NCBI GenBank assembly: GCA_046541875.1
Contig: JBKHCL010000002.1
Location: 3,811 to 67,810 of the forward strand
Direction: 5' to 3'
DNA length: 64,000 nucleotides
Source: Phycisphaerae bacterium
GTDB taxonomy: Bacteria; Planctomycetota; Phycisphaerae; SM23-33
Shown in pieces: positions 42,482 to 47,534 of this stretch; the stretch's first letter is position 1, and every line of letters starts with the position of its first letter. Below the pieces are notes generated by a model. That model worked only from the letters and a program-made list of their open reading frames with translations. It was not told the DNA's origin and did no database searches. The position numbers and the translations under genes were made by a program.

Positions 42482-42564
42482 GCGTTCCTTGTACTTGACC
42501 GGGGCCTGTGCGACAAGCGATAATGCTGCGTCACTCGAACCGCACGGACGCACAGCGAGGACTC

Positions 42565-43569
42565 ATGGACAACGCGACGCCGAATCTGGACGTAGCCCGA
42601 CGCGCACTGGCGGTGGAACACCAGGCCGTCGGGTCGCTGGCGGATACGATCGACGAGTCGTTCGCCGACGCCTGCCGGGCGGTCTGCGCCTGCGGGGGCA
42701 AGGTGGTGCTCACGGGCATCGGCAAGGCCGGCGTCATTGCCCGGAAGATCTCCGCGACGCTCGCTTCGACCGGGACGCAGAGCATTTTTCTCCATCCGGT
42801 GGAGGCGTTGCATGGGGATCTCGGTCGGCTGCAGCGGGGAGATGTGGTTCTCGCGCTGTCCCACAGCGGGGCGAGCGAAGAAATCGTCCGTTTGCTGGAC
42901 CACATCAAGGCCCGCGGCGCGACGCTGATCGCGATGACCTCCGACGGTCAATCGCCGCTCGGTCGCCACGCCGATATCACCCTCTGCTACGGGCAGATCG
43001 AGGAAGCCTGCCCCATGCAGCTGGCGCCGACCGCGTCGACCACGTGCATGCTCGTGTTGGGCGATGCCCTCTCGCTGACCGTGATGGACATGCGGGAGTT
43101 CGGCCCGGAGCAGTTTGCCGAGCACCACCCGGGCGGTTCGCTGGGTCGGCAGTTGATCCGGGTTCGCGACGCGATCGTTTTCAAGGCCGGCGAGCGGTTG
43201 ACGCCGGCGGACGACTCGCTTTCGCTCGGGGACGCCCTGGAAGAGGCCCAGCGCGGCGACGTGCGACGGTCCGGGGCGATGCTCCTGGTCGATGCGGACC
43301 GGCGATTGAGCGGGATCCTCACCGACGCCGATCTGCGACGGTGCATCCTGGCCCACCGCGGGGAAGATATCATGTCCCGTCCGGTGCGGGATTTTATGAC
43401 GGCAGAGCCCAAGGCCGTCGGGCAGGACGAACTGGCCAGCACGGCGCTGGCGATTATGAACGAATATCGCCTCGATGAGCTGCCCGTGCTCGACGGCGAC
43501 GGCAAACCCGTCGGCGTCATCGACGTGCAGGACCTCCTCGGGCTCAAGACGTTGGGAGGGTCGCAATGA
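42565..43569 (+). CDS. kdsD: Arabinose-5-phosphate isomerase KdsD (SIS + tandem CBS domains)
   Basis: SIS domain VVLTGIGKAG...LALSHSGASEE, then two CBS domains. Start chosen at MDNATPNLD. Confidence 0.85.
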   Translation: MDNATPNLDVARRALAVEHQAVGSLADTIDESFADACRAVCACGGKVVLTGIGKAGVIARKISATLASTGTQSIFLHPVEALHGDLGRLQRGDVVLALSHSGASEEIVRLLDHIKARGATLIAMTSDGQSPLGRHADITLCYGQIEEACPMQLAPTASTTCMLVLGDALSLTVMDMREFGPEQFAEHHPGGSLGRQLIRVRDAIVFKAGERLTPADDSLSLGDALEEAQRGDVRRSGAMLLVDADRRLSGILTDADLRRCILAHRGEDIMSRPVRDFMTAEPKAVGQDELASTALAIMNEYRLDELPVLDGDGKPVGVIDVQDLLGLKTLGGSQ

Positions 43570-44165
43570 CCCATGACGAAGACGCCCTTACCACCCACCG
43601 ATCGGGGAAGCAGGACACGCTCCTCCGCCACGTGACCGACTACCGCCGGCTGCAACTGCTCGTGCTGGACGTGGACGGGATTCTCACCGATGGGAGCATC
43701 ACGCTGACCGAGTCGGGCGAGGAGATCAAGACGTTCCACGTGCGGGATGGGTCGGGCATCAAATACTGGATGCGGCTGGGCAAGAAGGTGGCGATCATTT
43801 CCGGGCGCGGCTCTCCGGCGGTGAATCGCCGGGCGGGGGAACTCGGCATCGAGTGCGTTCGTCTCAACTGCAAGCGGAAGCTGCCCGTTTATGAGGACGT
43901 CTGCCGCGAGATGGGCGTCAGCGACGAGCAGGTGGCGGTCATGGGCGACGATCTGACGGACATCCCGATGCTGCGGCGTGCGGCGGTGGGCATTACCGTC
44001 GAGCAGGCACCGCTCGAGGTCAAAGAGGTCGCGACGTTCGTGACCCGCGCGCCCGGCGGAAAGGGGTGCGTGCGCGAAGCCATCGAGATGATGCTCCGCA
44101 ACAGCGGCGAGTGGAATCGCATCCTCGAACGATACAACGAGAATCCTCCCAAGGACGCCCTATGA
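43566..44165 (+). CDS. kdsC: KDO-8-phosphate phosphatase KdsC (HAD family)
   Basis: HAD motif I LVLDVDGILTDG and KdsC-like length. ATGA overlap with kdsD. Confidence 0.85.
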   Translation: MTHDEDALTTHRSGKQDTLLRHVTDYRRLQLLVLDVDGILTDGSITLTESGEEIKTFHVRDGSGIKYWMRLGKKVAIISGRGSPAVNRRAGELGIECVRLNCKRKLPVYEDVCREMGVSDEQVAVMGDDLTDIPMLRRAAVGITVEQAPLEVKEVATFVTRAPGGKGCVREAIEMMLRNSGEWNRILERYNENPPKDAL

Positions 44166-47100
44166 AGCGCAAGATCATCCTGCTGCTGGTCGGTCTGGCG
44201 GTGACATTCTCGATGTACTTCGGCTACCGGGCGATATCCGGCACGGTGGAACAGACTCGCGTGGAATTGCCGGACCCCAACATGACCGCTGCGCCCAATG
44301 ACAGCCCGGGAACAAACCAGGCGGGCGGCAAGGGGTTCTTCTACGTCCGCAACGATCCGAAGACCAACCGGCGCGAATTCACCCTCGCCGGCAAGCAGTG
44401 GGAGAAGCGGGAGGACGACAGCTTCCGCTTTACCGATCCGAATGTGCAGATCTTCCTGGCCAACGGCGGGCGGCTGCAGGTGCTCGCCGATCGCGGTGTG
44501 GCGTACGTACGCGAGGTGGGCGACAGTTTCCAGCCCCGGCGGGGTCGGCTGGACGGCAACGTGCGGATCTTCTACTACCGTCGCGCGTCCGAGCGGACCT
44601 CCGCGCGCCGGGAGGCGAACGTGGTGCGGATTTTTACCGACAGCCTCAGCTTCGATAACGAAATGCTCCTGCTGAGCACCGACGCCCCGATCACGCTCTG
44701 GTCGCGGGAGGCCGACATGCTCGGAACCGGGCTGACCCTCCGCTGGAACGAGGGGCCCGGCGAGCTGGACGTGCTCCGCATCGAGAAGGGCCAATACATG
44801 GCCGTCTACGCCATGCCCGGCGGGATGGACGCGCTGGGCATGGGTGGCGGCAATGACGAGTCGACCGGCGATCGGCCCGGTCGCCGGACGACCACCGCCG
44901 CCACCGACGCATCCGGCCGCGGAGCGTCTGCCCCGTCACCGGCCACCACCCAGCCGGGAGGGGAGGGCGAGAAGCGCCCGGCGATGAACAAGTACGCCGC
45001 GACGTTCAACGACGACGTCCGCGTGATCGCCTCCGACGGGTCGGCCACCGGAATCGAATCGCTCTCGCTGATGTTCGAGTGGCAGGCGGAGCTGGACGAC
45101 GAAGGCCGCGCCGCTCGGCCAACACGACGCCGGCCGCAGCGCGACGTGCCTGCCGACGCCAACGCTGCCGCCCCGCGTGCCGACGACGATGAAAAGACCG
45201 ACGACCGGGCCGACCAGCCGCTGACGGTTTACTGGTCCGGGCCGTTGGAGGTAGTCCCGACCGGGTTCACCGGGACCCCGTCGTCCAAGCGATGGGCCAT
45301 TCACGGCAAGGGGCGGCGGGTGCTGCTCAACGGCACCGACTACCGCGCCCGCTGCCGGCGGTTTTCGTATGTCTCCGATCCGAACAAGCAGATCGGCAAG
45401 CTCGAAGGCTCGCCCGATCAGCCCGTCCGCATGGTGATGGCCGGCGGCCAGCGGGCCACCGCCCCGGTGGTGCTGTTCGATCGCCTCTCGGCCGACCCGA
45501 ACACCAGCAAGGTTTTCCTGGTCGGGCCCGGGCGCATGAGTCGGCCGACGGACGCCAACGCCCACGACGTGATGCTCCTGGATCTCGAAGAGGACGCCCG
45601 GGACGCCAACGCGGCTGAGAGCATCACCTGGAACGAAGAAGTCGAAGTCGTCTTCCGCCAGGGCGATGATCCCAACGCCCAACCGGCGCTGCAGCGGGCG
45701 ACGTTCACCGGCGAGGTGGATTTCCGCCGGGCATCGGACGATACCGACATCCGCACGCCGTGGCTGCGCATCGAGACGGGGCAGGTCCGGCGGACCGACT
45801 CCACCGGCGGGGAGGCGAAGACCGAGACCTATCCGCGGGAGATCATCGCCCGCACGCTCAAGCCCGGCCAGCGCCTCACGGCCCGGCAGTCCGGCAGCCG
45901 AATCGACGCCAACGAGGTGACGCTCGCCTTCGCCGCCCCAGATCCGAAGGCAGAGCCCAACAGCCCCGCCGCCGAGGCGCGCCCGGCCGGCGTGAGAGCG
46001 TCCGGCAACGTTCGGCTGCGAAGCCGGGGCGACCCCAACGATCCGAACTCGGCGATCCTGGCGACCTGCCGGACGCTGGAGTCCAACCTGCTGGACGGCA
46101 GCGCGACACTGCGCGGCAAGCCCGCCCGCATTCTGCAGGATGCCAACCAACTCACCGGTGAGACGATCTACCTCGAACGCGGCGCAGGCCAGGACGCCCC
46201 CAACACCACCCACGAACGGCTGGAGGTTCGCGGGGCCGGCAGCATGACCTTTCGGACGGATCGTGACCTGGAAGGCAATCAGCTCCCCAGCGCCCGATTG
46301 GTGACGGTCGGCTGGGCCAAGCACATGAAATTCATCGGGGCCGACGACCAGGCCACCTTCACCGGAACGGTGCGCCTGCGCTCCCAGGCCGAGGAGATGG
46401 ACTGCGAAACCATGGTCGTGCAGTTCGACCGGGTGGATGCGAACAGCCCGGCCGACGCCAACGCGACGGCGGATGGTAAGCAGGGCCCGGACGTGCTGGA
46501 GATGGGCTCGGATTCATTCGCCCAGCGGCGCATCCGCGAGGTGATCGCCACGCGGAAGGTCCGACTGTTCAGCAAGCAGGAGGACCCCAACGCCCGAATG
46601 CTCTGGCGGTTCACGCTGGTGACGCCCAGGCAGTTGACCTTCGACGCCAATGCCCGGACGATGCAGGTCTCGGGTGAGGGGAAGCTCGCCATCGAGGACT
46701 ACCGCGCCCCGCAGCGCCGCGAGAGATCGACCGACGGCGACGACGCCTATCTCGTGAGCCCTTCGCAGACGGCGTTCGAGTGGGACAAGAGCATGTCTCT
46801 CTCGCAGGACGATCTGACGGTGATCATGGAGGGCGACGTCGGCGTGGTCCATCGCAGCGGGAAGAATGTCGTGCTCACCAAGGGCCTCAAGGTGCCCTTC
46901 GTCATGGCCGATGCGCCGGCCGGTCGGGAGACGATTCTCGGGTGCGACTGGCTGACGGCGACGTTCTCGCAGCCTGCCGACGCCAATGACGTTTCGAGGA
47001 CGAAGGGCGAGGAAGGCAAAGCCGACGGGGTGTTCGGGCTCAGCGGCCGACTCGATCGGTTCGCCGCCCGACGGGGCGTGACGCTGCGCGACGGCCGGGC

Positions 47101-47326
47101 CCGCGTGGACGACTGCGAGCTGCTCACGTACGACCGCGTGGAAGACCTGGTGGTGCTGGACGGTTCGCTGGGCGACGAGCGTCGCGGGGGCAACGTTTAT
47201 CTGCGGTATCGCGATCGCAATGGGGGCCTGCAGCAGAAATCGGCGTCGCGCATCATCTGGCGACCGGGGAAGAAGATCGCCCGGGCGGTGGATGTCTCGG
47301 GGACGGGCACCAGGGCGTCGGAGTAG
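44162..47326 (+). CDS. Giant (1054 aa) membrane-anchored LptC/LptA (OstA)-like protein with reiterated D-[PA]-N motifs
   Basis: N-terminal TM anchor like LptC. OstA/LptC-like N-terminal region (FTLAGKQWEK...VQIFLANGGRLQVLADRGVAY). Sits at the lptC-lptA position after kdsD-kdsC. At least 16 DPN/DAN tripeptides. Confidence 0.55.
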   Translation: MKRKIILLLVGLAVTFSMYFGYRAISGTVEQTRVELPDPNMTAAPNDSPGTNQAGGKGFFYVRNDPKTNRREFTLAGKQWEKREDDSFRFTDPNVQIFLANGGRLQVLADRGVAYVREVGDSFQPRRGRLDGNVRIFYYRRASERTSARREANVVRIFTDSLSFDNEMLLLSTDAPITLWSREADMLGTGLTLRWNEGPGELDVLRIEKGQYMAVYAMPGGMDALGMGGGNDESTGDRPGRRTTTAATDASGRGASAPSPATTQPGGEGEKRPAMNKYAATFNDDVRVIASDGSATGIESLSLMFEWQAELDDEGRAARPTRRRPQRDVPADANAAAPRADDDEKTDDRADQPLTVYWSGPLEVVPTGFTGTPSSKRWAIHGKGRRVLLNGTDYRARCRRFSYVSDPNKQIGKLEGSPDQPVRMVMAGGQRATAPVVLFDRLSADPNTSKVFLVGPGRMSRPTDANAHDVMLLDLEEDARDANAAESITWNEEVEVVFRQGDDPNAQPALQRATFTGEVDFRRASDDTDIRTPWLRIETGQVRRTDSTGGEAKTETYPREIIARTLKPGQRLTARQSGSRIDANEVTLAFAAPDPKAEPNSPAAEARPAGVRASGNVRLRSRGDPNDPNSAILATCRTLESNLLDGSATLRGKPARILQDANQLTGETIYLERGAGQDAPNTTHERLEVRGAGSMTFRTDRDLEGNQLPSARLVTVGWAKHMKFIGADDQATFTGTVRLRSQAEEMDCETMVVQFDRVDANSPADANATADGKQGPDVLEMGSDSFAQRRIREVIATRKVRLFSKQEDPNARMLWRFTLVTPRQLTFDANARTMQVSGEGKLAIEDYRAPQRRERSTDGDDAYLVSPSQTAFEWDKSMSLSQDDLTVIMEGDVGVVHRSGKNVVLTKGLKVPFVMADAPAGRETILGCDWLTATFSQPADANDVSRTKGEEGKADGVFGLSGRLDRFAARRGVTLRDGRARVDDCELLTYDRVEDLVVLDGSLGDERRGGNVYLRYRDRNGGLQQKSASRIIWRPGKKIARAVDVSGTGTRASE

Positions 47327-47396: not shown

Positions 47397-47534
47397 ACCG
47401 TGCTTTACGCAGCCGGCGGGGAGATTGTATCTCCGCGTCAACGCAGGCTGCGTTCTCGTTTTGAACCCCATGTAACACGTGATGCGACCTTGGGTATGGA
47501 TGCTTGAATCCTGCCGCCACGTGGAGGTGCACCA

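Follow-up and report, generated by a model that had tools for sequence, protein, structure and literature searches.

A 1054-aa candidate LptC-(LptA-like)n fusion protein encoded directly after kdsD-kdsC in a Phycisphaerae bacterium, probably part of a single-chain LPS bridge

In E. coli, the periplasmic LPS slide is made from separate LptC and LptA proteins. LptC (b3199; PF06835, TIGR04409) is 191 aa long and has one jellyroll, whereas the protein described here has 1054 aa and about five more units. LptA/LptH (PF03968 LptD_N/OstA; PDB 2R19, 4UU4) is soluble, with ~185 aa, and LptA molecules assemble head to tail into non-covalent oligomers (PMC10863985). In the 1054-aa protein, in contrast, the units are covalently joined, fixed in number, and anchored in the inner membrane by a predicted helix, and several of them are too divergent for the Pfam LptA/OstA model. 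LptD has a C-terminal 26-strand barrel and outer-membrane targeting; the 1054-aa protein has neither of them and carries the inner-membrane anchor instead. An LptA-sized unit is ~40 Å long, the LptC-LptA-LptD bridge of E. coli was modelled at ~15 nm, for which three jellyrolls suffice, and both the number of LptA copies per bridge and the adaptation of the bridge to periplasm width are unsettled for E. coli (PMC10863985).

The design principle predicted from the model, one long chain with an N-terminal TM helix and a hydrophobic beta groove between two membranes, is common to TamB, YhdP (AsmA-like), VPS13, and LPD-3/BLTP1. The fold family of these AsmA-like/BLTP proteins differs from the Lpt type, and the likely cargo here is LPS, not phospholipid. 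Membership in AsmA/TamB (PF05170, PF13502, PF04357) was rejected, as no AsmA/DUF490 Pfam matches were obtained and TamB was absent from the structural match lists. The tandem MCE proteins LetB and PqiB, compared with the single-MCE protein MlaD, follow a like logic, in which a single-copy domain is multiplied in one chain into a periplasm-spanning lipid conduit (bioRxiv 10.1101/748145); their fold (MCE hexameric rings with a tunnel) is unrelated and their cargo is different. A literature search for a single-chain LptC-(LptA-like)n architecture found no paper describing it.

The window, i.e., the whole 64-kb stretch of DNA analysed, is from a Phycisphaerae bacterium (NCBI name), and kdsD, kdsC, the 1054-aa ORF with the units of its product, and the hairpin before rpsB, all described below, are on its + strand. 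An apparent operon is opened by kdsD (arabinose-5-phosphate isomerase, 42508..43569) with SIS and two CBS domains (Pfam SIS and CBS; TIGR00393 KpsF/GutQ, 270 bits). A promoter-like site at 42495-42524 lies by its start, and therefore the true start of kdsD may be slightly downstream of the GTG. The next gene, kdsC (Kdo-8-phosphate phosphatase, 43566..44165; TIGR01670, 154 bits), has 4-nt overlaps with kdsD and with the gene coding for the 1054-aa protein, the ATG of which overlaps the kdsC stop as ATGA; the kdsC-lptC junction of E. coli likewise has a 4-nt overlap. The candidate LptC-LptA fusion ORF extends over 44162..47326, stop codon included, and its translation of 1054 aa is stop-free. 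An alternative longer start, GTG at 44066, is improbable, since M1/R3 and the N-terminal helix are matched in an alignment of 54 homologues. The genes rpsB, tsf, pyrH, and frr follow on the 3' side, backed by the Pfam-annotated orthologous locus L005, and a weak terminator-like hairpin (47440..47454), predicted by consensus scan only, is in the gap before rpsB. In E. coli, lptC is followed by lptA-lptB, whereas the 1054-aa gene is not. The initial annotation had described kdsD-kdsC followed with an ATGA overlap by one large gene, with no separate lptA or lptB before the rpsB operon, and had presumed a Planctomycetota setting; the TIGR00393 and TIGR01670 matches, the junction sequence, the order rpsB-tsf-pyrH-frr, and the name of the host agree with all of this. 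The current database labels of proteins of this type are hypothetical (NCBI) and LptA (JGI).

Taken singly, the window protein matches the known models below their thresholds. PF03968 LptD_N was matched at aa 646-754 with 18.1 bits and an E-value of 0.0033 (gathering score 20.4 bits), TIGR03002 LptA with 12.8 bits, also below cut-off, and the LptC models with 15.5 bits (Pfam PF06835, cut-off 21) and 14.0 bits (TIGR04409, cut-off 38). As these Pfam and NCBIfam matches are sub-threshold, the case rests on family-level evidence. A word-indexed homologue search, even with a profile query, gave eight relatives, and a contig search with a three-sequence alignment gave two close, short MAG contigs; the family was revealed by exhaustive search, with 718, 460, and 187 cluster representatives at E-values of at most 1e-3, 1e-10, and 1e-30, respectively. 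It is a large family of uniform length, with a median of 1097 aa across 112 full-length members that carry the anchor and a 5-95% range of 1011-1188 aa. At E <= 0.01, Pfam LptD_N was found in 41 of 45 members (best 2.6e-19) and Pfam LptC in 16 of 45 (best 5.2e-9), the latter consistently placed at aa ~60-195 and exceeding the Pfam cut-off in relatives P0019 (35.4 bits) and P0014 (22.9 bits). The region equivalent to aa 602-760 of the window protein scored above the LptD_N gathering score in all nine homologues tested (29-70 bits), and a per-domain LptD_N match at aa ~540-690 was present in seven of these nine.

Homology to LptA and the LptD N-domain was also recovered when the family profile was compared with all PDB sequences. 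Seventeen of 18 matches were the LptD N-domain (E 1.5e-4) or LptA, and the remaining one was insignificant (E 0.18). Alignments in hhalign with single E. coli LptA or LptC sequences, or with an enterobacterial LptA profile that is narrow in holding only relatives more than 82% identical, had a consistent placement, but at a probability too low to be decisive (6-51%). The predicted structure of the 1054-aa protein has the Lpt-type beta-jellyroll fold, and all Foldseek matches of the model at probability 1.00 were LptA, LptH, LptC, or LptD.

The AF2 model was built on a 54-sequence alignment and has pLDDT 78.6 and pTM 0.63. The N-terminus, MKRKIILLLVGLAVTFSMYFGY, is modelled as a basic and hydrophobic helix of aa 2-25 (44165..44236, pLDDT 82-87), which is followed by ~65 beta strands, the first from aa 55. 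This is the anchor-then-jellyroll layout of LptC. The helix was placed onto the TM segment of E. coli LptC by hhalign, a basic and hydrophobic N-terminus is kept in 112 of the 148 top homologues, and probably the helix stays uncleaved as a signal anchor, as in LptC.

The first unit after the anchor is the LptC-like jellyroll of aa 53-220 (44318..44821), with W195 inside. It is followed by a low-complexity disordered insertion of aa 221-268 (44822..44965, pLDDT < 50), which is variable in length in the family. The AF2 model then has a partial jellyroll of aa 269-373 (44966..45280) with a hairpin at 277-306, strands at 354-368, and W358; another disordered loop, aa 311-349, breaks this unit, and its aa 271-310 align with the C-terminal third of an OstA unit. 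The canonical OstA/LptA unit (PF03968 LptD_N) of the chain is aa 602-760 (45965..46441), which includes W718, the motif ATFTGTV, and the above-mentioned Pfam match. Two other full LptA/OstA-like units were aligned to it in hhalign, namely aa 374-543 (45281..45790; W490, motif ATFTGEV) with 97.9% probability and an E-value of 4.9e-13, and aa 785-940 (46514..46981; W874) with 97.2-98.3% and E-values down to 2.6e-14. Between the former and the canonical unit, the beta sheet is continued by a four-strand connector of aa 544-601 (45791..45964; AF2 strands 552-564, 572-576, 579-583, and 585-591). The match of the family profile to the LptD N-domain, at positions 543-617 in profile and not residue numbering, falls approximately within this connector and the first part of the canonical unit. 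The last unit, aa 959-1046 (47036..47299; W1033, motif GGNVYL, AF2 strands 964-1043), is truncated to ~60% of a unit and aligned to the canonical one with 52-86% probability (52% for aa 959-1053); presumably the LptD N-domain docks here. As a point against the bridge, the chain is broken by disordered loops, two to five in number (aa 221-268, 311-349, 761-774, and 940-956).

The protein is thus internally repetitive, with homologous units of ~160 aa recognised by profile comparison at up to 97-98% hhalign probability. The chain has about six jellyroll equivalents, the LptC-like first unit and about five of LptA/OstA type; of the latter five, three are full ~160-aa repeats and the remainder are partial units and the connector. 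The initial interpretation is thereby largely borne out. An LptC-like N-terminal TM anchor, an LptC-like first domain, and a chain of fused OstA-like jellyrolls had been claimed from the initial inspection, which also called for a count of jellyrolls by AlphaFold. These claims hold in the AF2 helix and the strands behind it, in the unit at aa 53-220 with its LptC matches among relatives, and in the likeness between units together with the family-wide LptD_N matches, and the count comes from the AF2 model and profile comparison.

The position downstream of kdsD-kdsC is that of an LptC-type gene and is conserved. In all nine related loci (23-70% identity), kdsD and/or kdsC is directly upstream on the same strand, a conserved co-transcription context, and the downstream genes differ in each. 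The surroundings viewed were flanks of up to 23 kb for the relatives and the single 64-kb window for the host. In locus L001, LptE is coded 7 kb upstream of the family member. No lptB, lptF, lptG, or lptD adjoins the homologue in any of the nine loci, and neither these genes nor lptA were among the scanned ORFs covering most of the window; partnership with the Lpt ABC transporter is therefore an assumption. A run of genes for 370, 254, and 378 aa at 27-31 kb was considered as lptF/B/G and rejected, as it is an Na+-NQR operon.

With a probability of about 70%, the protein is bitopic in the inner membrane, and its LptC-type module, made of the TM helix and first jellyroll, is continued by about five LptA/OstA-type units as part of a single-chain LPS bridge. 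As one LptC-like domain and some five units of LptA type are coded directly after kdsD-kdsC, the protein probably represents most of the periplasmic slide that E. coli makes from two proteins. The N-terminal module would dock on an LptB2FG ABC transporter whose genes are elsewhere, the joined units would line up into a single uninterrupted hydrophobic groove in which the acyl chains of lipid A slide, and the C-terminal edge strand would pair with the jellyroll at the N-terminus of LptD. A single polypeptide would thereby be the bridge part that E. coli builds from LptC and one or more LptA. By a rough estimate from unit counts, six equivalents would span about 24 nm, more than the ~15 nm of E. 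coli; this fits the enlarged periplasm of planctomycetes, which is described as extended in Planctomycetota (PMC12673574). Tentatively, we propose that in Phycisphaerae and related Planctomycetota this one gene product, LptC and about five LptA equivalents with ~24 nm length and fixed stoichiometry, replaces LptC and oligomeric LptA, that its conserved length (~1100 aa ± 8%) acts as or matches a periplasm ruler, and that it is an Lpt-derived counterpart, by convergent evolution, of TamB, YhdP, and the bridge-like lipid transfer proteins.

The protein could also be an extended LptC forming part of the bridge only, which lengthens but does not replace the canonical bridge and is linked to LptD by a separate LptA encoded elsewhere. 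The truncated C-terminal unit, which could need a partner, and an HMM survey in which the Lpt system of Planctomycetes is in 'largely reduced form', not absent (PMC8871954), speak for this. Against it, about six jellyroll equivalents already exceed the three sufficing in the E. coli model (PMC10863985), family members differ very little in length, which would follow if the span were set by the chain itself, and no short OstA gene adjoins the homologue in any of the nine loci. This arrangement appears unlikely.

Considerably less probable is a bridge-like transporter of Lpt-type jellyrolls whose cargo is not LPS but a phospholipid, a lipoprotein, or a different Kdo-glycolipid; in function it would resemble TamB/YhdP/AsmA or Borrelia Lpt. 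A TM anchor with a beta groove of ~1000 aa is the architecture of TamB and YhdP, model 1 was matched in Foldseek to the bridge-like lipid transfer protein LPD-3 with probability 0.90, and Lpt homologues of Borrelia carry lipoproteins (bioRxiv 10.1101/2022.12.21.521298). The narrow family length and an anchored, rod-like chain would suit a structural tether or spacer that sets the distance between inner and outer membranes with no lipid moving along it. Every recognisable module, however, is a lipid-carrying fold, the neighbouring operon genes make LPS precursors, and Pfam revealed no domain for peptidoglycan binding or outer-membrane anchoring in the window protein and the family. A tether is very improbable.

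If the single-chain bridge is real, a natural covalent LptC-(LptA)n chain would provide a bridge of defined stoichiometry and a convenient single-protein target for cryo-EM or cryo-ET, and it would allow asking whether, in Planctomycetota, the length of the bridge follows the geometry of the envelope. The 'largely reduced' Lpt of Planctomycetes in HMM surveys (PMC8871954) may reflect LptC and LptA functions hidden in a divergent protein of ~1100 aa.

The tripeptide D-[P/A]-N occurs 17 times in the 1054-aa protein versus 0.52 expected (maximum of 5 in 5000 shuffles), in line with the at least 16 copies of D-P-N or D-A-N counted initially. The tie then made between these tripeptides and the repeats fails, as most of the 54 homologues have 0-1 copies and other envelope proteins of the window are also enriched in D-[P/A]-N. 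Being missing from most family members, the tripeptide was rejected as a hallmark of the jellyroll units, and it is a lineage-specific trait of envelope proteins. It is not a DNA-level motif, because its codons vary synonymously. A PglB-type N-glycosylation sequon (D/E-x-N-x-S/T), in which Pro is disfavoured at the x position, was likewise rejected, with S/T at +2 in only three of the 17 sites.

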